Of a stretch of DNA of 64,000 bases, positions 13,346-34,460 are shown piece by piece. Position 1 is the first letter of the stretch, and each line of letters opens with the position of its first letter. The notes beneath the pieces were generated by a model, which had not been told where the DNA came from, did no database searches, and was given only the letters and a program-made list of their open reading frames with translations. A program made the position numbers and the translations under genes. This DNA is from an uncultured bacterium (GTDB lineage Bacteria; Patescibacteriota; Patescibacteriia; Patescibacteriales; UBA12465), in contig OW818634.1 of the NCBI GenBank assembly GCA_942492765.1, positions 729,159-793,158 on the forward strand, in the 5' to 3' direction.

Positions 13346-14149
13346 ATGCGGTACTATAACGAAATAATCAAGACTTCGCGATTCTCCTACGCTAAAGGTT
13401 ATCTTGGCCCTAATCCTATTGTTGATCAGGCAAGACTGATTGGGGAGCTTTTTAAGCTTGATACCGGCCCCGCCCTTTTATTAGCGGAGAACTTATCTGT
13501 CGCCTTGCCTAATGGCGCAGAGGGGTGGTTTGCCAGACCCAAGGAGTCAGCGTTAGCGAGAGAACATTTCCCTGATATTGAAGATAAGCGAGTTCAGCAT
13601 TGCGAGGCTACGAAATTAGCCTTAGAGATGCTGAAAACGCGACGTCATCTCTTTGATGCGCTGGCAGACGACATTGCGCCTAATAAATTGCGGCCCAATG
13701 AGTTGTCGGCCTATGCCATGGCTATCATTGAAGATGAGCAGCCAGGGGATATAGTGATTTTTCCAGCCCAATTTGGCGCTCGCTATAGAGGCCATTCAGA
13801 CAGATTATCCCTGGAGATTATGAATAAGGGAAATCGTGAATTTGGCTTAGATATATTTTCGCTGGCCTGCATGACTTTATGCCACGATAATATTCTCCGA
13901 GCCAAGGAAGAGCTGGGTTTTATTTGTGCCGGGGATGAGTTCTGCCAGGAAAAAGATATTACATTTTCGTCAGCACCCTGCCTTTTTACTTTCAATGGCT
14001 TAAGCGGGCTGATTAATGGCCTGGACAATTCCGTAGAGATGATTCCTGACGGTCGGCTGACTTTAGGGGCGGATCATTCCAGTAGTTATGCTGAGATTTT
14101 CGGAGTAGCTTCATTTTTTTTGCCGCCAATCATGGATATGCCCCAGTAA
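13346..14149 (+). CDS. Hypothetical protein, paralog A of an orphan pair
   Basis: 267-aa ORF with its own putative promoter (TTGACG-17-TATTAT at 13255-13283) and terminator. The C-terminal half aligns by eye with the next gene (shared ...EFGL..., ...AC..L..., ...CAGDE...). Confidence 0.6.
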   Translation: MRYYNEIIKTSRFSYAKGYLGPNPIVDQARLIGELFKLDTGPALLLAENLSVALPNGAEGWFARPKESALAREHFPDIEDKRVQHCEATKLALEMLKTRRHLFDALADDIAPNKLRPNELSAYAMAIIEDEQPGDIVIFPAQFGARYRGHSDRLSLEIMNKGNREFGLDIFSLACMTLCHDNILRAKEELGFICAGDEFCQEKDITFSSAPCLFTFNGLSGLINGLDNSVEMIPDGRLTLGADHSSSYAEIFGVASFFLPPIMDMPQ

Positions 14150-14328: not shown

Positions 14329-15033
14329 ATGAGAAAAGTAGGCAGCAACACCAAGGTAGGATCAAATTCTGCCAATCTTCTAAGAAGCTTAGAACAAGAA
14401 CTCGCGCAATTACAGGTACTTTTTCCTGAGTTAGCACGCTTTGATTTCGATCGAAGTTATGTAGACAGGATAATCAGCGGATGGATAAAATTGCCGGCGG
14501 CCGCGACAAGATGGGCTTTAGTGTTCAATTGGGAGAGGTTTTTTGAATCATCTGAAGAGTCTATCCAATCATCGCTTTCCGCCGTTAATTCGATTCAGGA
14601 AGCTATCGGCGGCCAGTTCCGCCAAGATTTAGGCGCTGAACAGGAGATTAAGCTCTTGAAAACAAGTGCCAGAACGAAATTTGCCCTGCATCAGATCGAT
14701 CAAAGGCAAAAAGGCTTTATTTATGTCATACCGATTCGTGTAAGTCCTCCTTGTCAGGTTGGTGATTATAATGGCATCGGGAAGCTGATGGGCCGCAATG
14801 AGTTTGGCCTTGGCGTGTGCGCCACAGCCTGCTTAATGCTAGCGCAGCCGCTTGGCGCCAAGAGAAATAAGGGGCTTTACGTGGATTGTGCTGGCGACGA
14901 AAGCGTAGCCACTGGCGAAAATCCTTTCTTTTTCTTCCATGGCAAAGGCATATGGTTCTATTCCAGACAATCTAACAATACAGGTAATATCGGTGGTTAC
15001 TATACCAGGATTACTGGGTTTGTAGTCGAATAG
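14329..15033 (+). CDS. Hypothetical protein, paralog B of an orphan pair
   Basis: 234-aa ORF preceded by TTGACA at 14222-14227 and followed by a strong terminator. Shares NEFGLG, ATACLML and DCAGDES blocks with paralog A (REFGLD, SLACMTL, ICAGDEF). Confidence 0.6.
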   Translation: MRKVGSNTKVGSNSANLLRSLEQELAQLQVLFPELARFDFDRSYVDRIISGWIKLPAAATRWALVFNWERFFESSEESIQSSLSAVNSIQEAIGGQFRQDLGAEQEIKLLKTSARTKFALHQIDQRQKGFIYVIPIRVSPPCQVGDYNGIGKLMGRNEFGLGVCATACLMLAQPLGAKRNKGLYVDCAGDESVATGENPFFFFHGKGIWFYSRQSNNTGNIGGYYTRITGFVVE

Positions 15034-15050
15034 AATAGAATAATTTTTTT

Positions 15051-15080
15051 AAGCTCCGTGCAGATAACACGGAGCTTTTT
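15051..15080 (+). terminator. Rho-independent terminator after paralog B
   Basis: Perfect 10-bp stem AAGCTCCGTG / CACGGAGCTT with a 7-nt loop, then TTT. Confidence 0.8.
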
Positions 15081-15135: not shown

Positions 15136-15164
15136 TTGACCGGTGATTTGAATTTTGCTAAAAT
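15136..15164 (+). promoter_or_regulatory. Putative sigma70-type promoter of the nrd operon
   Basis: TTGACC, 17-nt spacer, TAAAAT. Confidence 0.5.
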
Positions 15165-15173
15165 GACTATAAG

Positions 15174-15221
15174 ACACAACATTTAGTGGTCGATGTCCTA
15201 AAAGGCCACAAAATATAGGGT
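15174..15221 (+). promoter_or_regulatory. Two tandem NrdR boxes
   Basis: ACACAACATTTAGTGG (15174-15189) and CCACAAAATATAGGGT (15206-15221) both resemble the NrdR-box consensus acaCwAtATaTwGtgt. The starts are 32 bp apart, the typical tandem spacing. They sit between the -10 box and the nrdR ATG. Confidence 0.6.
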
Positions 15222-15232
15222 TTTATTCATAT

Positions 15233-15691
15233 ATGAAATGCCCAATCTGCTATTTTCCAGACACTAAGGTGGTCGACTCCCGGGTCGCCCCTGACGGACT
15301 GTCTATCCGCCGCCGCCGCGAATGCCTGAAATGCGGTTTCCGTTTCTCGACTTACGAGGAAATCGAGCTGCTAGACCTGGTTATCGTGAAACGGGACGGA
15401 AGGAGAGAGTCGTATAGCCGGGAAAAGATGGTGAGCGGCTTGAAAAAGTCTTGCGAGAAGAGGTCTATTACCGAGGACCGCTTCAAGAAGCTGATCCATT
15501 CTATTGAAAGAGATCTGCAGCGCCTGAAGAAGACTGAAATAACTTCCCGCCAGATCGGCCAAGCCGTCATGAAGAACCTGAAGAAGGTGGATCCTGTCGC
15601 CTATATCCGCTATGCCTCAGTTTACGAATCTTTCAAGGACGCGCACGAATTCCGCAAGGAACTGAATAAGCTTATAAATGAAAAGAAATAA
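15233..15691 (+). CDS. nrdR: Transcriptional repressor NrdR
   Basis: MKCPICYFPDTKVVDSR...CLKCGFRFSTYE zinc ribbon plus an ATP-cone. 152 aa. Confidence 0.95.
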   Translation: MKCPICYFPDTKVVDSRVAPDGLSIRRRRECLKCGFRFSTYEEIELLDLVIVKRDGRRESYSREKMVSGLKKSCEKRSITEDRFKKLIHSIERDLQRLKKTEITSRQIGQAVMKNLKKVDPVAYIRYASVYESFKDAHEFRKELNKLINEKK

Positions 15692-15696
15692 TATTT

Positions 15697-17748
15697 ATGT
15701 CTGAAACTATCAGCAAGTTAATCAAAAGATCCGGCGAAATCGTCGACTTTGATCAGGATAAGATTGGTAAGGCTATTTATAAGGCGGGTTTGGCGGTAGG
15801 CATCGATGATCGCCATTTGGCGAAGAAGCTCACTGACCAGGTGACCATGCGTTTGAATCAGAAATTTCATAAGAACAGCATTCCGGCCGTGGAAGAAGTC
15901 CAGGACATAGTAGAAGAAATCCTGATCGAGAATAAATTGATCAAGATCGCTAAGGCTTATATTCTTTATCGCGACCAGCATCGCCAATTGCGCGATATCA
16001 ATACCTCTACTTCCGACGATAAGCTCTTGGAAGATTATTTGGGCCGCGCTGATTGGCGCTTGAAAGAGAATAGCAATATGAGCTTCTCGGTTCAGGGCTT
16101 GAATAATTATATTGCCTCCTCTATCTCTGCTCGTTATTGGCTCAATAAGATGTATCCGGAAAATATCCGCCAAGCCCATATCAACGGCGATATTCATATT
16201 CATGATTTGGGCCTGCTTGCTCCTTATTGCTGCGGCTGGGATCTGAAGGATCTATTATTGCGCGGTTTCCGCGGCGTCAGCGAAAAAGTCCAGAGCAACG
16301 CGCCGAAGCATTTTCGCAGCGCGCTCGGCCAGATCATCAATTTTTTCTATACCCTTCAGGGCGAAGCGGCCGGAGCTCAGGCTTTTGCTAATTTCGATAC
16401 CTATCTCGCCCCGTTTATCCGTTATGACGAATTGAGTTTCAAGGAAGTAAAGCAGGGCTTGCAGGAATTCATGTTCAATATCAATGTCCCGACCCGCGTC
16501 GGTTTCCAGACCCCGTTCACTAACATCACTCTCGACGTGACCCCATCTCCGATGATCGGAGAAGAGAATGTGATCATCGGCGGCGAAGTCATGCCGGAAA
16601 AATATAAGGATTTTCAGCCGGAAATGGATATGTTTAATCAGGCTTTTGCCGAGGTCATGTTGGCCGGCGATTCTTCCGGTCGCGTCTTCGGCTTCCCGAT
16701 TCCGACTTATAATATTGATAAGGATTTTGATTGGGACAGAGAATGCTTGAAACCGGCCTGGGAGATGACTGCTAAATACGGTATTCCTTATTTCTCCAAT
16801 TTCGTGAATTCTGATATGAACCGCGACGATGCCCGTTCAATGTGCTGCCGCCTGAGGCTTGATAACCGCGAGTTGCGCAAGCGCGGCGGCGGATTATTCG
16901 GCGCCAATCCTCTGACCGGATCCCTTGGAGTCGTGACTCTGAATCTGGCTAGAGTGGGTTACTTATCTAAGAGCAAGGAAGAATTCAAGGAGCGCATCTT
17001 CAAGTTGATGGAGATATCGAAGGAGAGCTTAGAAATCAAGCGCAAGATCATCGAGAAGTTTACGGAAGATCGCCTCTATCCTTACTCGATGTTCTATCTC
17101 GAGAATATCAAAGCCCATTTCGGGACTTACTGGAAGAATCATTTCTCAACTATCGGCATCAATGGCATGAATGAAGCAGCCCTGAATCTTATGGGTAAAG
17201 ATATCTCTACCCCGGAGGGCCATGCTTTTGCCGCTGAGATCCTCGATTTCATGCGCGAGAAACTGATGGATTTCCAGAACGAGACCAATAATCTCTATAA
17301 CCTGGAAGCGACCCCGGGCGAGGGCTGCACTTATCGCTTTGCTAAGAAAGACCAGCAGCTTTATCCAGGCATAATCTGCGCTAATACCGAAGCGGTCAAG
17401 CGTCAGCATGCCGATCCTTACTATACGAATTCGACTCATTTGCATGTTAATTTCTCCGAGGATATCTTTTCCGCTCTTGATCTCCAAGATGATTTGCAGA
17501 CGAAGTATACCGGCGGCACTGTTCTTCATGGTTATTTAGGGGAGCGCTTGCCTGACGGCGATACGGCTAAGAAATTAGTCAAAAAGATCGTCGAATCTTA
17601 TCGCTTGCCTTATTTCACCATCACCCCGACTTTCTCGATTTGTCCGAAACACGGCTACCTGTCTGGCGAGCATAAGTATTGCCCTAAATGCGACGAGGAA
17701 ATCGGCTATAAAGAGAGCGTCGCCGAGGTTCGCGCCGCTAATCAGTAA
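15697..17748 (+). CDS. nrdD: Anaerobic ribonucleoside-triphosphate reductase (class III) large fragment, lacking the glycyl-radical loop
   Basis: N-terminal ATP-cone, class III RNR core and a C-terminal zinc motif CPKH-x9-CPKC. The ORF ends at TAA 17746-17748 before any RxxGY-type glycyl radical motif. Confidence 0.9.
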   Translation: MSETISKLIKRSGEIVDFDQDKIGKAIYKAGLAVGIDDRHLAKKLTDQVTMRLNQKFHKNSIPAVEEVQDIVEEILIENKLIKIAKAYILYRDQHRQLRDINTSTSDDKLLEDYLGRADWRLKENSNMSFSVQGLNNYIASSISARYWLNKMYPENIRQAHINGDIHIHDLGLLAPYCCGWDLKDLLLRGFRGVSEKVQSNAPKHFRSALGQIINFFYTLQGEAAGAQAFANFDTYLAPFIRYDELSFKEVKQGLQEFMFNINVPTRVGFQTPFTNITLDVTPSPMIGEENVIIGGEVMPEKYKDFQPEMDMFNQAFAEVMLAGDSSGRVFGFPIPTYNIDKDFDWDRECLKPAWEMTAKYGIPYFSNFVNSDMNRDDARSMCCRLRLDNRELRKRGGGLFGANPLTGSLGVVTLNLARVGYLSKSKEEFKERIFKLMEISKESLEIKRKIIEKFTEDRLYPYSMFYLENIKAHFGTYWKNHFSTIGINGMNEAALNLMGKDISTPEGHAFAAEILDFMREKLMDFQNETNNLYNLEATPGEGCTYRFAKKDQQLYPGIICANTEAVKRQHADPYYTNSTHLHVNFSEDIFSALDLQDDLQTKYTGGTVLHGYLGERLPDGDTAKKLVKKIVESYRLPYFTITPTFSICPKHGYLSGEHKYCPKCDEEIGYKESVAEVRAANQ

Positions 17749-17811
17749 TCGGCGATCAGTCAATAGCGGATATTTGTAATTTAAATAGATATAATTTATA
17801 ATGATAATAAT

Positions 17812-17949
17812 ATGAGTCCAATCCAGACACAAAGACAGGAATGTATCGTCTATAGCCGCGTAGTCGGCTGGCTTACTCCGGTAAAGAATTATAACCCGGG
17901 CAAGGCCGCTGAGTATAAGGACCGGAAGACGTTCAAAGTTTGCGAATAA
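17812..17949 (+). CDS. Stand-alone glycyl-radical segment of NrdD (45 aa)
   Basis: ATG at 17812 and TAA at 17947-17949. The product MSPIQTQRQECIVYSRVVGWLTPVKNYNPGKAAEYKDRKTFKVCE matches the conserved NrdD C-terminus (YSRxxGY..PV..WN.GK..E..DR). It is in the same reading frame as nrdD, separated by 63 nt that contain two further stops beyond the nrdD TAA. Too short for the ORF track. Confidence 0.7.
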   Translation: MSPIQTQRQECIVYSRVVGWLTPVKNYNPGKAAEYKDRKTFKVCE

Positions 17950-17961
17950 ATTACCAAAGCT

Positions 17962-18687
17962 ATGATAATTGGCGGTTTAGAGAAATTAACCCTTCTTGAC
18001 TACCCTGATCATCTAGCGGCTATAATCTTCACCCAAGGATGTAATTTCCGTTGCCACTTTTGTTACAACCCTTTGCTTGTCCTGCCCCTTGAGGGAGGGG
18101 ACGAAAAAAATAAAAAAGAAAAAGGTTTTTCTCCGCTTTCCCAAAAAAACCTTTTTCTTTTTTTAACGGAAAGATTCGGCCGTTTAGAAGGAGTCGTCAT
18201 CACCGGCGGGGAGCCGACTTTGCACCCCGACTTGCCTGACTTCATCAGGAAGATAAAAGAGATCGGTTATCTCGTAAAATTAGATACGAATGGAACTAAT
18301 CCCGGCATGCTGGCCGGGCTTATTCGCGATAAGCTCATCGATTACATCGCGATGGACCTGAAGGCTCCTTTAGCTAGATATAGCGAAGTCGTCGGCGTCT
18401 CGGTTGACTGTAAAAATATCGAAAAAAGTGTTAAGATGATAATTGAGAGCGGCCTGCCTTATGAATTCAGGACGACCGTCGTTCCTGGTTTGCTCGGTCA
18501 GGATGATTTTGAAGCGATGGGCCAATCTATTAAGGGCGCCAAAAAATGGTATCTGCAGAATTTTAAATCCGATACAGGGCTGGTCGACGGCGATTTTCAG
18601 GAAAAGCCGGGCTATAGCGCCAAAGAGATGGCGGAATTCGCCGCCATCGGCCGCAAGCACGTCGATCTCTGCGAAGTGCGCGGATAA
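17962..18687 (+). CDS. nrdG: Anaerobic RNR activating enzyme (radical SAM)
   Basis: CNFRCHFCYNP radical-SAM cluster motif, GVVITGGEPTL and KLDTNG. 241 aa. Confidence 0.9.
   Translation: MIIGGLEKLTLLDYPDHLAAIIFTQGCNFRCHFCYNPLLVLPLEGGDEKNKKEKGFSPLSQKNLFLFLTERFGRLEGVVITGGEPTLHPDLPDFIRKIKEIGYLVKLDTNGTNPGMLAGLIRDKLIDYIAMDLKAPLARYSEVVGVSVDCKNIEKSVKMIIESGLPYEFRTTVVPGLLGQDDFEAMGQSIKGAKKWYLQNFKSDTGLVDGDFQEKPGYSAKEMAEFAAIGRKHVDLCEVRG
18112..18163. repeat. 19-bp perfect inverted repeat inside the nrdG coding sequence
   Basis: AAAAAAGAAAAAGGTTTTT (18112-18130) and AAAAACCTTTTTCTTTTTT (18145-18163) are exact reverse complements around a 14-nt loop. The repeat encodes the KKEKGFSPLSQKNLFLF segment. Confidence 0.85.
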
Positions 18688-18968: not shown

Positions 18969-20834
18969 ATGCAAGATATCGCAGTATTCGCCCAGACAAC
19001 TTATCGCAACGAATTCAAGAGATTCGGCATCAAGACCGACGATCGTCGCCGGCATATGTATCTGATCGGAAAGACCGGCATGGGCAAGTCTACTATTTTG
19101 GAGAATATGATCGTGGACGATATTCGCGCCGGACATGGCGTTGCCGTTGTCGATCCCCATGGCGACCTAGCCGAAAAGATTATTGAATTCATCCCTGACG
19201 ATCGGATAAAAGACGTCGTCTATTTCAATCCTTCGGATATAAATTTTCCGATCGCTTTTAACGTCGTGGAACAAGTCGAGCCGCATTTGCGCCATCTCGT
19301 CGCTTCCGGGCTTATCGGCGTCTTTCAGAAATTATGGGCGGATTCTTGGGGACCGCGTTTGGAATATATCTTGCGCAACGCTATTTTGGCGATCTTGGAT
19401 TTTCCAGGATCGACTATCTTGGGCGTCGTGCGCATGCTTTCCGATAAGAATTACCGCAAGCGCGTCGTCGCTAATATCAAGGATCCGGTAGTCAAGGCTT
19501 TCTGGGAAAAGGAATTTTCTGGTTATGCCGATAAGTTCGCTTCTGAGGCTGTCTCTCCTATTCAGAATAAGGTCGGACAATTCTTATCGAGCTCGCTCAT
19601 GAGAAATATCATTGGCCAGGTGAAGTCGGCTATCGATATCCGCGATATCATGGATAGCGGCAAAATCTTGATCATGAATCTGTCTAAGGGACGCATCGGC
19701 GAAGATAATTCCGCGCTTCTGGGTGCGATGATGATCACGAAGATCCAATTAGCGGCCATGAGCCGCGTCGATATCCCGGAAAAAGAGCGCCGCGATTTTT
19801 TCCTGTACATCGACGAATTCCAAAATTTCTCGACCGACAGCTTCGCTAATATCTTATCGGAAGCTCGTAAATACCGGCTTAGCTTGATCTTGGCGCATCA
19901 GTATATTGAACAGCTGAGCGAGAAAGTGAAACCAGCTGTCTTCGGTAACGTTGGCACCATGGTCGTTTTCCGCGTCGGCGCGGCCGATGCCGAAGAGCTA
20001 GTCAAGGAATTCACCCCGACTTTTACAGAAGAGGATATCGTCAACCTGCCTAAGTATGAGATGTATCTGAAACTGATGATCGACGGCATCTCCTCTTCGC
20101 CGTTCTCGGCTAAGGGCTTGCCACCTTTGACCGAATCCGAGAAGACTGGAAATACCCAGAAAGTGATCGATTATTCTAGAGAGAATTATGCCTCTGACAG
20201 GGAATCAGTCGAAGAGAAGATCATGAGCTGGCACGAGAATACCGGAGAAGAAACTGCGCCCACTCCAGTCTTAGCGTCGACGCCGGCCTATCACGCAGCC
20301 GTCTCTGCTTCAAGTTCCGCTCCAGTACCGGCCCCATCTCCTAGCCTAGTTAAATCTCCAGCCGTTGCGCCAGCTCGGCCTTATGTCGCGCCAGCTGCCG
20401 CTCCAGCACCCTCTCGCCCAGCCCCGAAACAGCCGGCGGCCGGAGGCTATGCAGCTATTTGTAATTCTTGCGGCCAGGAAACGACGACCGTCTTTGAACC
20501 AGATGGCGTGCGTCCGGTCTATTGCCGCGATTGTCTTAGCAAAAAAAAAGAAGAGAAGCGCCTAGAATTAGAAAAACGCCAAATAGCCAAGATAGAAGAA
20601 AGGCGCCGCGCTGATGAGGAGGACAAGAAAAGGGAGAATGTTCCGACCTTATCCCTTAATGACTTGGCTAAAGCTGCGCCGCGCGATTTTCGCGGCCGCG
20701 AGATAAAAGCTCGCCCGGCTTCTCCAGTTAAGAAAGAACGAACCTCGTCTGATTGGAAAGATATTCCTTTTCCAGAGCTTCCTTATAAGGAGCAGGATCT
20801 GGCCGAAGGAGAAGACATTACTTTTAAGAATTAG
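18969..20834 (+). CDS. TraD/VirD4-like (type IV secretion coupling protein-like) P-loop ATPase with Pro/Ala-rich linker and C-terminal CxxC...CxxC zinc ribbon
   Basis: Walker A GKTGMGKST, Walker B-like FFLYIDEFQNF and an ARKYRLSLILAHQ motif as in TraG/TraD-family ATPases. C-terminal CNSCGQETTTVFEPDGVRPVYCRDC is followed by a K/E/R-rich tail. Confidence 0.7.
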   Translation: MQDIAVFAQTTYRNEFKRFGIKTDDRRRHMYLIGKTGMGKSTILENMIVDDIRAGHGVAVVDPHGDLAEKIIEFIPDDRIKDVVYFNPSDINFPIAFNVVEQVEPHLRHLVASGLIGVFQKLWADSWGPRLEYILRNAILAILDFPGSTILGVVRMLSDKNYRKRVVANIKDPVVKAFWEKEFSGYADKFASEAVSPIQNKVGQFLSSSLMRNIIGQVKSAIDIRDIMDSGKILIMNLSKGRIGEDNSALLGAMMITKIQLAAMSRVDIPEKERRDFFLYIDEFQNFSTDSFANILSEARKYRLSLILAHQYIEQLSEKVKPAVFGNVGTMVVFRVGAADAEELVKEFTPTFTEEDIVNLPKYEMYLKLMIDGISSSPFSAKGLPPLTESEKTGNTQKVIDYSRENYASDRESVEEKIMSWHENTGEETAPTPVLASTPAYHAAVSASSSAPVPAPSPSLVKSPAVAPARPYVAPAAAPAPSRPAPKQPAAGGYAAICNSCGQETTTVFEPDGVRPVYCRDCLSKKKEEKRLELEKRQIAKIEERRRADEEDKKRENVPTLSLNDLAKAAPRDFRGREIKARPASPVKKERTSSDWKDIPFPELPYKEQDLAEGEDITFKN

Positions 20835-32708: not shown

Positions 32709-34460
32709 ATGAAATTGATTAGTTTTAGTTTAAAGAATTATCGATCAATATCAACGGCGTACAAGCTACCCCTATCAGATTATGCGGTTATTGTTGGACC
32801 AAACAATGAAGGGAAAAGTAATATTTTAAAGGGGTTAGGACTGGCATTATCAATATTAACTAATGAAAGATTTTTTAGTATTGGAGGGCACATTAATCAC
32901 TTCGTTGGCAGATATAGCAGGGGGGCTGTATTGTCGAATAATAGATTGGCTGACTACTTAAGATATAACTGGGAGCGAGATTTTCCTATTAATTTGCAAA
33001 AAACTTCTAAAAAAGGCAGAGATCGATCTGAATTTACATGCGAATTTGAATTAGAAGAAAAAGAGTTTAGAGAATTTAAAGAAAAAACTAAAATTAATCT
33101 TGCTACAAATTTGAAAGCGAGCGTTATTATAGAAAAATCTGGTAAGGTGACGGTAGACTTTTTACTGAATGGAAAGGGGAAGGTGGCATTGAACACAAAA
33201 AAACGTGAGATTTCTAATTTTATAAATAGTAAATTATTACTTCAGTATATACCAGCCATAAGAACATCTGATTTGGCAATTGAGATTGTTGATAATTTAT
33301 TAGAAGAAGAGTTATCTACTCTTGAGGGTAATCCCGAATTCCAAAATGTAATTAAAATTATTGAAAAACTTCAAAAGCCAATAATTAAAAAAATATCAAA
33401 AAGTCTCACCCAGTCAGTTTCAAAATTTATTCCAGATGTGGCGTCAGTTTCTATCAAGAACCAAGAAGATATTAGTGAATTGATCAGCGCCTCTTGTCGC
33501 ATCTATATTAATGATGGAATAGAAACAGATTTAAAACTAAAGGGGGACGGAGTAATAAGTTTAACAGCAATTTCTTTACTGCAACATTTCAGCAAGCATG
33601 ACTCCCTGAATAAAGGTTTTGTGTTATTGCTTGAAGAACCAGAAAGTCATTTACATCCTAAAGCCATACACAATTTAAAAGAAATTTTGCATGAGATATC
33701 TAAAACAAATCAAGTTATTATGACCACGCATTCTCCTATTATAGTAGACAGGCTCGAAGTGCATCACAATATAATTGTACAGAACGGCAAAGCCGGGCCA
33801 GCTGAAAACGTAAGTGAAATTAGAAAATCTCTAGGAATCACCATGTCTGATAATTTATCCAGCGCCTATTTGGTTTTATTGGTGGAGGGTTTAGAAGATG
33901 TAATTATTCTATGGCAGTGGCTTAAAGAAAAATCAGTTAAAATTAAGTCGGCTTTAGAAAATGCAACTTTAATTATAGATCATTTAGGAGGTGCTAGTAA
34001 TATATGTTATAAAGCAACTCAGTATAAAAGTAATTTGTGTAATGTGGTTGCGTATCTTGACGATGATGAAAGCGGGAAAAAGGCGATTAATGATGCGAGG
34101 TCAAAGAATATTTTAAAAGATAGTGAATATGTTCTGTCGTCATGTTTAGGTAGACAAACGAGTGAAATAGAAGATTTGATACTTATTTCTGCATATAAAC
34201 AAGTAATTATAGAAGATTACGGTGTAAATCTGGAAGTTCCTCATTTTAAAGATAATAAAACAAAATGGTCAGATAGAGTGAAAAAATTATTTAAGAGTAA
34301 TGGAAAATTGTGGAATGATAAAATCGAAGTTGAAATAAAACAAAAAATTTCTAAACAAGCAGCATCTTTAGGGCTTTCCTCTTTAGATTCTCATAAAATC
34401 AGCTCAATTGATTCACTGGTTTTAACTATTGAGAGCGTTCTCAATAAGCAGGATAGTTAA
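32709..34460 (+). CDS. OLD-family nuclease: N-terminal ABC/AAA-type ATPase fused to a C-terminal TOPRIM domain
   Basis: The N-terminus KLISFSLKNYRSI...VIVGPNNEGKSNILKGL carries the Walker A. LLLEEPESHLHP is the Walker B/D-loop and MTTHSP the H-loop. The TOPRIM glutamate is in LVLLVEGLEDVI and the DxD motif in AYLDDDESGKKA. The gene is very AT-rich compared with its flanks. Confidence 0.8.
   Translation: MKLISFSLKNYRSISTAYKLPLSDYAVIVGPNNEGKSNILKGLGLALSILTNERFFSIGGHINHFVGRYSRGAVLSNNRLADYLRYNWERDFPINLQKTSKKGRDRSEFTCEFELEEKEFREFKEKTKINLATNLKASVIIEKSGKVTVDFLLNGKGKVALNTKKREISNFINSKLLLQYIPAIRTSDLAIEIVDNLLEEELSTLEGNPEFQNVIKIIEKLQKPIIKKISKSLTQSVSKFIPDVASVSIKNQEDISELISASCRIYINDGIETDLKLKGDGVISLTAISLLQHFSKHDSLNKGFVLLLEEPESHLHPKAIHNLKEILHEISKTNQVIMTTHSPIIVDRLEVHHNIIVQNGKAGPAENVSEIRKSLGITMSDNLSSAYLVLLVEGLEDVIILWQWLKEKSVKIKSALENATLIIDHLGGASNICYKATQYKSNLCNVVAYLDDDESGKKAINDARSKNILKDSEYVLSSCLGRQTSEIEDLILISAYKQVIIEDYGVNLEVPHFKDNKTKWSDRVKKLFKSNGKLWNDKIEVEIKQKISKQAASLGLSSLDSHKISSIDSLVLTIESVLNKQDS

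Follow-up and report, generated by a model that had tools for sequence, protein, structure and literature searches.

A class III ribonucleotide reductase with a predicted stand-alone glycyl-radical segment in uncultured Patescibacteria

Results

Organization of the nrdR-nrdD-nrdG locus

The window considered in this work, a stretch of 64,000 nucleotides (nt) of an uncultured bacterium of the patescibacterial lineage UBA12465 (assembly GCA_942492765.1, contig OW818634.1, positions 729,159 to 793,158 of the forward strand), contains a class III ribonucleotide reductase (RNR) gene, nrdD, that is divided into two open reading frames (ORFs). Class III RNR is sensitive to oxygen and produces the precursors of DNA. 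The larger one (hereafter nrdD-large) encodes 683 amino acids (aa) and lacks the glycyl-radical loop, which is found on a separate ORF of 45 aa (hereafter the small ORF). The genes follow one another on the same strand (+) in the order nrdR, nrdD-large, 63-nt spacer, small ORF and nrdG, with the following features:

15051-15077: putative terminator-like hairpin, just 5' of the predicted nrdR promoter
15136..15164, +: predicted sigma-70 promoter of the nrdR-nrdD-large unit, TTGACC-17-TAAAAT with extended TG (a consensus match, 10/12)
15174-15189 and 15206-15221, +: two NrdR boxes, 32 bp apart, between the promoter and nrdR
15233..15691, +: nrdR, repressor with zinc ribbon and ATP-cone (TIGR00244, 182.8 bits; Pfam Zn_ribbon_NrdR and ATP-cone)
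15697..17748, +: nrdD-large, 683 aa, ending at TAA 17746, without glycyl-radical loop
residues 8-96 of nrdD-large: ATP-cone
residues 124-667 of nrdD-large: catalytic core
residues 382-385 of nrdD-large (16840-16851): finger loop MCCR
residues 649-665 of nrdD-large (17641-17691): zinc motif CPKH-x9-CPKC (CPKH 17641-17652, CPKC 17680-17691)
17692-17709: conserved DEEIGY of nrdD-large, then a variable tail of 12 residues to TAA 17746
17749..17811, +: AT-rich spacer, 63 nt, 24% GC
17774-17779 and 17797-17802: predicted internal promoter, TTGTAA-17 nt-TATAAT, 10/12 consensus matches
17812..17949, +: small ORF, 45 aa, separate glycyl-radical segment of NrdD, starting at ATG 17812
17842-17844: conserved Cys11 of the small ORF
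17857-17871: radical motif RVVGW of the small ORF
17866-17868: codon GGC of the predicted radical glycine, Gly19, of the small ORF
17962..18687, +: nrdG, radical S-adenosylmethionine (radical-SAM) activase (TIGR02495 NrdG2, 204 bits, cut-off 131 bits)

The large piece covers positions 1-529 of the 562 positions of Pfam NRDD (PF13597, E 2e-181) and scores 1023 bits against NCBIfam PRK08270, for which the cut-off is 548 bits. The core profile, the finger-loop cysteine motif, the zinc motif and an adjacent nrdG, by which an NrdD is recognised, were all found; the RVxG[YFW] loop is absent from this chain, which ends 18 residues past CPKC. The CPKH-x9-CPKC motif would provide a complete zinc site (Cys, His, Cys, Cys) on nrdD-large, and CPxH...CPxC was indeed kept in all relatives compared. 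By its MCCR motif, the enzyme is predicted to belong to the double-cysteine subclass of NrdD, which has been tied to thioredoxin-type reduction (PMC9669993). Upstream, both NrdR boxes were the sole matches to ACACWATATATWGTGT (three mismatches at most) within the 64 kb, for a chance expectation of 0.28. An initial annotation of this DNA had described a 683-aa ORF with ATP-cone, core and zinc motif, stopping before any radical glycine, next to intact nrdR, NrdR boxes and nrdG, and both coordinates and profile matches agree with that description.

The small ORF matched positions 530-562 of the same NRDD profile (E 3.8e-7; 29.6 bits, above the gathering cut-off of 26.2), the segments found on the two ORFs being complementary and without overlap, to an extent that chance would not produce. 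In the same way, the 684 positions of PRK08270 were shared out between nrdD-large (3-659) and the small ORF (649-683). The initial annotation of this ORF as the glycyl-radical segment of NrdD is therefore borne out by the Pfam match; of the two profiles that it had named, NRDD was matched but Gly_radical (PF01228) was not, even at E ≤ 1, and PF13597 is the only Pfam match. A phmmer search of the PDB sequences returned nothing at E ≤ 10, the 45-aa query being too short. In all, 20 contigs drawn from NCBI, ENA, JGI and Logan, which are four independent sources, encode the identical 45-aa protein with unchanged synteny, and some such mini-ORFs are automatically annotated in databases as "anaerobic ribonucleoside-triphosphate reductase".

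Conservation of the divided gene in relatives

Relatives were scanned with one genome per species, which yielded 80 loci, from Falkowbacteria and other patescibacterial metagenome-assembled genomes (MAGs), whose nrdD-large is 75-98% identical. In 78 of these 80 species-level loci, nrdD-large stops soon after the zinc motif and is followed by the small ORF and then by nrdG, while the other two are truncated by contig ends; nrdR, nrdG and nrdD-large are intact throughout. The spacer, reading frame and start codon were then compared among 79 loci, window included. Spacers ranged from 11 to 201 nt (median 77, 17% GC), and the frame of the small ORF relative to nrdD-large was 0, 1 or 2 in 33, 22 and 24 loci, respectively. 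By contrast with this variable frame and spacing, the start of the small ORF is fixed, its ATG coinciding with residue 1 of the alignment in all 79 loci (MSP or, in rare cases, MAP), and the combination excludes read-through, bypass, frameshifting and single-base errors as explanations of the split.

The conserved part of nrdD-large ends in a strictly kept [DE]E[ILM]G[YF]. After this conserved DEEIGY comes a stretch variable in both sequence and length, the whole tail beyond CPKC amounting to 9-42 residues. In the small ORF, residues R8, Y14, R16, V17, V18, G19, W20, P23, G30, E34 and D37 are invariant among relatives. The ratio of nonsynonymous to synonymous substitution rates (dN/dS) was 0.046 over 42 moderately diverged pairs, compared with 0.026 for the adjoining 41 zinc-ribbon codons; over all pairs, the proportion of synonymous differences was 0.79, meaning that synonymous sites are saturated, and that of nonsynonymous differences 0.11. 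Such substitution patterns indicate strong purifying selection on the small ORF.

Two further observations were made on these loci. In L049-L060, L061, L068, L071 and L080, the nrdD-large tail and the small ORF both end in Cys pairs (C-terminal ...CSDC, ...SCC or ...CGSCGCDK), which recall the C-termini that act as redox shuttles in class I and II RNRs. Besides, L021 and L022 are two contigs of one MAG (CAYGLM01), each with an nrdD-large 87% identical to that of the window; this pair could reflect strain heterogeneity or a second copy.

Spacer and predicted internal promoter

The small ORF of the window lies in the same frame as nrdD-large, from which it is separated by the 63-nt spacer with its two in-frame stops, TAG 17764 and TAA 17782; these coordinates, and that of ATG 17812, were correctly given by the initial annotation. 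The spacer contains no ORF, and no homing endonuclease, intron or intein was found at the split point. The scan of Rfam gave no family in the spacer region, its sole matches being three transfer RNAs.

The spacer does contain a predicted promoter, the -10 box of which ends 9 nt 5' of the small-ORF ATG. The exact TTGTAA-N17-TATAAT was found in at least 28 related spacers, with unconserved flanks, and TATAAT in 51 of the 79 spacers, as compared with 21.9 ± 3.9 (maximum 36) over 500 shuffles. In L005, L013 and L072, the TAA of TTGTAA doubles as the stop codon of nrdD-large. In the scan of the window, no NrdR box was present beside this internal promoter. We infer from these sequences that the small ORF, and probably nrdG too, is transcribed from a start of its own, distinct from that of the nrdR-nrdD unit under NrdR control; nrdG, which starts 12 nt past the small ORF, is probably co-transcribed with it. 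A leaderless messenger RNA was considered as a general property of the small ORF and dropped, the -10 box lying anywhere from 6 to 80 nt before the ATG, depending on the locus.

Break point compared with contiguous relatives

Alongside this family-wide split, contiguous nrdD genes whose core is 57-62% identical were found in Pacebacteria, Portnoybacteria, Nealsonbacteria and Minisyncoccia. These contiguous enzymes (PRK08270; structural relative Thermotoga maritima NrdD, PDB 4U3E/4COI) resemble that of the window in their ATP-cone, MCCR loop, CPxH...CPxC motif and adjacent nrdG, and they have a counterpart of its radical segment, EVYSRVVGY. They differ in that the zinc knuckle leads directly into the radical loop on one chain, where in the window a stop is followed by a promoter and then by a second start, and in the residue following the radical glycine, which is Tyr (RVVGY) in contiguous NrdD and Trp in the clade of the window.

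Alignment to these contiguous orthologues, proposed in the initial annotation, placed the break after the CPKC knuckle and ahead of the conserved Cys that follows it. The contiguous pattern is C-P-x-H ... C-P-x-C-(3-5 residues)-C-E-V-Y-S-R-V-V-G-Y, the last knuckle Cys and the next conserved Cys being 3-5 residues apart except in two outliers (7 and 27). In the window, nrdD-large ends in ...CPKC-DEEIGY-tail and the small ORF begins with MSPIQTQRQE-C-IVYSRVVGW, and the same Cys-Cys gap holds 18 tail codons, the stop, 21 spacer codons and 10 leader codons. The figure of about 45 interrupting codons put forward at first was thus about right, but their description as foreign or degenerate was not; they consist of a lineage-variable C-terminal tail, a spacer with a conserved promoter and a conserved N-terminal leader.

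The split leaves the four-ligand zinc motif on nrdD-large, and the small ORF receives Cys11, which is the fifth Cys, together with the radical loop and the C-terminal segment. T. maritima NrdD, aligned via the contiguous tail, has Val at the position of Cys11, which is therefore family-specific. A role for Cys11 in completing the zinc site was dropped for the window, where nrdD-large already has four ligands; such completion may occur in other split types, for example L137 (see below). MAFFT aligned the contiguous "xCPKCx" knuckle onto the MSPIQT of the small ORF (17812-17829). Together with DEEIGY, this alignment may hint that the split originated in a local duplication followed by the decay of one copy per element.

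Structure predictions

AlphaFold2 was run on a direct concatenation of nrdD-large and the small protein, with an alignment made of contiguous homologues and small ORFs. The fused model had a mean predicted local distance difference test score (pLDDT) of 82.4 and a predicted template modelling score (pTM) of 0.78; pLDDT fell below 50 at the junction (residues 674-687), and its block means were 79-83 in the radical segment. Gly702, which corresponds to Gly19 of the small ORF, was placed at the tip of a hairpin, with strands 695-700 and 703-706 on either side, which in this model is the canonical NrdD arrangement. The 36 best Foldseek matches of the fused model were all NrdD structures (9d3x, 8p23, 4u3e, 1h79). 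Predicted on its own, the peptide was helical and poorly scored (pLDDT 67, pTM 0.35), so that its fold depends on nrdD-large in these predictions, which suggests that the small peptide folds on the large subunit.

Stand-alone radical segments in metagenomes and viral contigs

A profile of the small ORF was searched against 1.84 billion representative proteins and gave 4254 matches at E ≤ 1e-3, including 520 at E ≤ 1e-10. The best 150 of the 4254 were short (47-115 aa), save for one 236-aa fragment of a contiguous NrdD, and were mostly Met-initiated, with unrelated leaders and an RVVGY-type loop. When a diverse alignment was used in a word-indexed search, 7979 matches were obtained, the best 120 of which were all 44-72 aa long. 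Judging from these sequences, stand-alone NrdD-type radical peptides are far commoner than this clade alone. The surroundings of the ORF were determined in 80 metagenome loci and 80 viral contigs, most of the latter being called viral as labelled by the collection:

Metagenome, 80 loci: split with the large piece adjacent, 31 (27 with nrdG); contiguous, 37; orphan small ORF, 4; near contig edge, 8
Viral contigs, 80 loci: contiguous, 8; orphan small ORF, 49; near contig edge, 22; other, 1 (small ORF upstream of the large piece)

Split and contiguous forms were interleaved in a neighbour-joining tree of the large cores. This tree has no support values, and the number of origins was not rested on it; differing junction types were used instead. 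Many split large pieces have a CDEEIGY tail in common and L104, L106, L135 and L141 have other tails, and such sequences show that there is not just a single type of junction. The place where the zinc knuckle meets the radical loop would be a natural site of breakage, which appears to have been used on more than one occasion.

Several loci depart from the arrangement of the window. In L137, the fourth zinc-knuckle Cys is missing from the large piece (tail ...ETCPLDAREK...) and present on the small protein, MVKKECGKKCEIWSRSVGY, which has C-G-K-K-C ahead of the loop (C-x3-C-EVYSR), so that two chains would be needed to assemble the zinc site. A C-x3-C (two Cys) also precedes the radical loop in P0243, P0247, P0267, P0181 and P0196. 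The gene order is permuted in L115:1238-4141 (nrdD-large, nrdG, small ORF) and in L162:3226-6425, where the small ORF lies upstream of the large piece. The radical-loop segment is duplicated in tandem within the small ORF of P0126 and P0196 (...EVYSRVVGYLSPVSHWNEGKKEEW, twice).

The order nrdR-large-small-nrdG was also found in L245:1687-5147, L247:1553-5165 and L248:2976-5165, from MAGs that include one labelled as a Thermoplasmatota archaeon. Loci of this type have gaps of 0-8 nt, frame relations of 0, 1 and 2, and a GGAGG-like Shine-Dalgarno sequence within the last codons of the large gene (...CPKCDEEIGYKG, then stop). Two of these three large genes contain inteins (1101 and 1147 aa). Downstream of nrdG lie a TM1506-family gene (L247 and L248) and a thioredoxin-reductase-like Pyr_redox_2 gene (L245, L247 and L248), the latter being consistent with thioredoxin-type reduction.

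The viral orphans (about 49 of the 80 IMG/VR contigs, L161-L240) are 41-157 aa long and have at least 2.5 kb of upstream sequence; L165:4001-4132, L182:4001-4153 and L207:3986-4132 are examples. Neither NrdD, searched with a hidden Markov model, nor NrdG, searched with phmmer, was found within about 4 kb of the 49 orphans. Pfam searches on five viral loci gave Mu F-like, P22 coat, tail lysozyme, M23 peptidase and glycosyltransferase matches in three, and nothing informative in two. Like the small ORF of the window, the phage orphans match NRDD and not PF01228, and only the last 32-52 positions of the former. One type is short, about 50 aa. In a longer type, of about 93-157 aa, the radical loop is preceded by a CxxC...CxxC zinc ribbon of its own (L176:3758-4159, L223:3680-4120, L184:1450-1782, L185:225-500, L187, L191, L206, L218, L221, P0177 and P0259), and this type would amount to a complete detached radical domain. 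PHROGs contains no dedicated family for the stand-alone peptide, and a collection of cultured phages gave three matches, two under annotated NrdD genes and the third on an unannotated record. By their sequences, the viral orphans may be phage-borne radical cofactors for the NrdD of the host.

Discussion

A probable two-subunit enzyme with a radical loop acting in trans

This work indicates that the nrdD-large and small ORF of the window probably encode a functional, obligate two-subunit class III RNR in which the radical loop acts in trans, a reading to which we give a probability of roughly 85% on comparative evidence. The small protein would be obligate because nrdD-large has no radical loop. 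The initial annotation had leaned toward function while hesitating between a two-piece RNR with a detachable radical domain, in concept like GrcA/YfiD, and a recently disrupted gene; the comparison of genomes supports the former.

From a mechanistic point of view, nrdR and nrdD-large would be transcribed from the upstream promoter under the control of the NrdR boxes, and the small ORF, probably with nrdG, from the conserved promoter of the spacer. NrdG would take a hydrogen from Gly19 of the peptide, which would enter the barrel of the large subunit as a beta-hairpin beside the MCCR loop and pass the radical to the finger-loop cysteine, catalysis proceeding thereafter as in contiguous NrdD. 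With separate promoters, synthesis of the peptide and its activase would not be tied to that of the large subunit, which NrdR represses. Since glycyl-radical proteins are cut by oxygen at their radical glycine (PMC13450708), a replaceable carrier of 45 aa would make repair cheap, which is a likely benefit of the split.

Several points weigh against this interpretation. The internal promoter, although conserved, is a consensus match, and both the covalent fusion and the contiguous homologues bias the AlphaFold2 model toward the canonical arrangement. A free peptide of 45 aa bearing a radical might be unstable. Patescibacteria, with their reduced genomes, might salvage deoxynucleosides, so that essentiality cannot be assumed, and another RNR could lie elsewhere in the genome, of which the analysis covers 64 kb. 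The two-piece enzyme is known here from sequences and models.

Alternative explanations

Among the alternatives, the one that fares best, while being improbable, is that the small protein is non-catalytic, a regulator or decoy of NrdG, and that the large piece either serves a different purpose or draws its radical from elsewhere, for example from the glycine of DEEIGY. The strictly conserved [ILM]-G-[YF] at the end of nrdD-large and the predicted failure of the isolated peptide to fold are in line with this proposal. However, DEEIGY comes without the Arg and the upstream strand of a radical site, and its glycine lies 5 residues past the zinc knuckle, as against at least 12 in contiguous enzymes, which is probably too short to reach the active site. 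Furthermore, nrdD-large retains the finger loop and the full core, and a non-catalytic role is unlikely for the small protein because all the hallmarks of the NrdD radical segment are kept (R16, G19, aromatic residue 20, P23, G30, E34 and D37).

There is an even smaller chance that the two ORFs yield one polypeptide, through recoding (read-through, frameshift or a bypass as in T4 gene 60), RNA splicing or protein trans-splicing. In the window, both ORFs do share one frame and lie only 63 nt apart. Across the loci, however, all three frames are used, and the gap of 11-201 nt is unconserved apart from the promoter. Three stops would have to be passed in the window, the gene order is permuted in L115 and L162, and no intron or other Rfam family was matched. 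Splicing is unlikely, given spacers of down to 11 nt and flanking tails of insufficient length for an intein; indeed, the variable tail of 18 aa and the leader of 10 aa are below the size of known split inteins and without intein motifs.

That the gene was recently disrupted, the small ORF being the leftover of a decaying pseudogene, is very improbable. The three in-frame stops and the AT-rich interruption of this window would suit such a decay, yet the split is shared by 78 species-level genomes at 75-98% identity, the dN/dS of the small ORF is 0.046, the start codon and promoter are conserved, and nrdR, nrdG and nrdD-large are always intact, which together refute this second reading of the initial annotation. 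Finally, an artefact of assembly or sequencing, for which nothing speaks beyond the general error rate of metagenome assemblies, can be set aside in view of the 20 contigs with identical protein and synteny, the 78 independent genomes with the same split and the distinct CDEEIGY tail that split large pieces have instead of the contiguous C-(3-5 aa)-C-EVYSR.

A tentative extension of the two-subunit enzyme is that the peptide serves as a diffusible, exchangeable cofactor, activated by NrdG off the enzyme, docking on the large subunit and replaced after oxygen damage, with phage copies, either of about 50 aa or of 100-147 aa and equipped with a zinc ribbon of their own, re-arming or taking over the anaerobic RNR of the host. 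We regard this extension as possible, though doubtful at present. If true, pyruvate formate-lyase (PFL) would no longer be the only enzyme with an autonomous glycyl-radical cofactor system, and the NrdD system would be obligate for some lineages and, in others, an auxiliary gene of phages.

Comparison with known systems

To our knowledge, the radical glycine is part of the catalytic chain in every glycyl radical enzyme characterised so far, the only exceptions being GrcA/YfiD and T4 Y06I, which serve PFL. The window peptide resembles GrcA/YfiD from Escherichia coli and phage T4 Y06I in being a small stand-alone radical-loop protein beside a large catalytic protein, and in having phage copies. 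GrcA/YfiD and Y06I are activated by the cognate radical-SAM activase and act in trans on PFL, and phage-borne copies have been described (PMC8683613, PMC13450708). GrcA differs in three respects: it is a homologue of the PFL C-terminus (Pfam Gly_radical, IPR011140), whereas the window ORF matches NrdD only; it is a spare part for an enzyme with its own radical loop, whereas the window peptide is the sole radical loop; and it has about 127 aa with a disordered N-terminus, as against 45 aa. As far as sequence goes, the small ORF is therefore analogous, not homologous, to GrcA/YfiD. By analogy, a spare-part role might fit the orphan phage copies. According to a 2021 paper and a 2026 review, only YfiD and Y06I have been validated, and spare parts of other glycyl radical enzymes are still to be found (PMC8683613, PMC13450708).

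Catalytic subunits that come from two adjacent genes offer a second likeness, namely the class II NrdJa/NrdJb of Pseudomonas aeruginosa and NrdA-a/NrdA-b of Aeromonas phage Aeh1. Both of these split enzymes reportedly work, the pieces reassembling into an active enzyme. They differ from the present case in RNR class and split point, and the radical element is not parted from the barrel. NrdJa/NrdJb is cited as having been characterised biochemically (Crona 2015, cited in PMC9669993), while the nrdA of Aeh1 was divided into two genes by insertion of mobE (PMC3653736), and such a homing-endonuclease insertion has no equivalent in the spacer of the window. A third group is that of interrupted phage nrdD genes, made of two coding regions through group I introns, inteins or short non-coding gaps, as in T4, Lactococcus phage 949 and Aeromonas phage phiAS4 (PMC3653736), none of which is reported as a conserved radical-loop gene with its own promoter. 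These interruptions, unlike the split described here, are mostly mobile elements repaired by splicing, the gap of phiAS4 being of unknown cause. The intron of T4 nrdD is said to lie elsewhere in the gene.

A split NrdD radical loop was not described in the open-access papers and bioRxiv preprints searched. It appears that a known enzyme and the known concept of an autonomous radical domain are combined here in a new way and in a new family, unreported in the searchable literature. A naturally split class III RNR offers an experimental handle on how the radical domain leaves the barrel for the activase, on the installation of a radical on a free peptide and on the repair of oxygen damage. In addition, RNR surveys that demand a full-length NrdD will miscall such genomes as lacking a radical site, and will miss hundreds of tiny phage ORFs, possibly auxiliary metabolic genes.

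Other features of the window

Upstream of nrdR, the ORFs 13346-14149 and 14329-15033 (+) are adjacent distant paralogues (29% identity over 91 aa, E 2e-5) with a common EFGL...AC...CAGDE motif. Downstream of nrdG, 18969-20834 (+) encodes a VirD4/TrwB-like coupling ATPase with a C-terminal treble-clef zinc finger, a neighbour also found in the close relatives L241-L243. Farther downstream, 32709-34460 (+) encodes an AAA_15/AAA_21 (AbiEii-like) ATPase, a possible defence gene.

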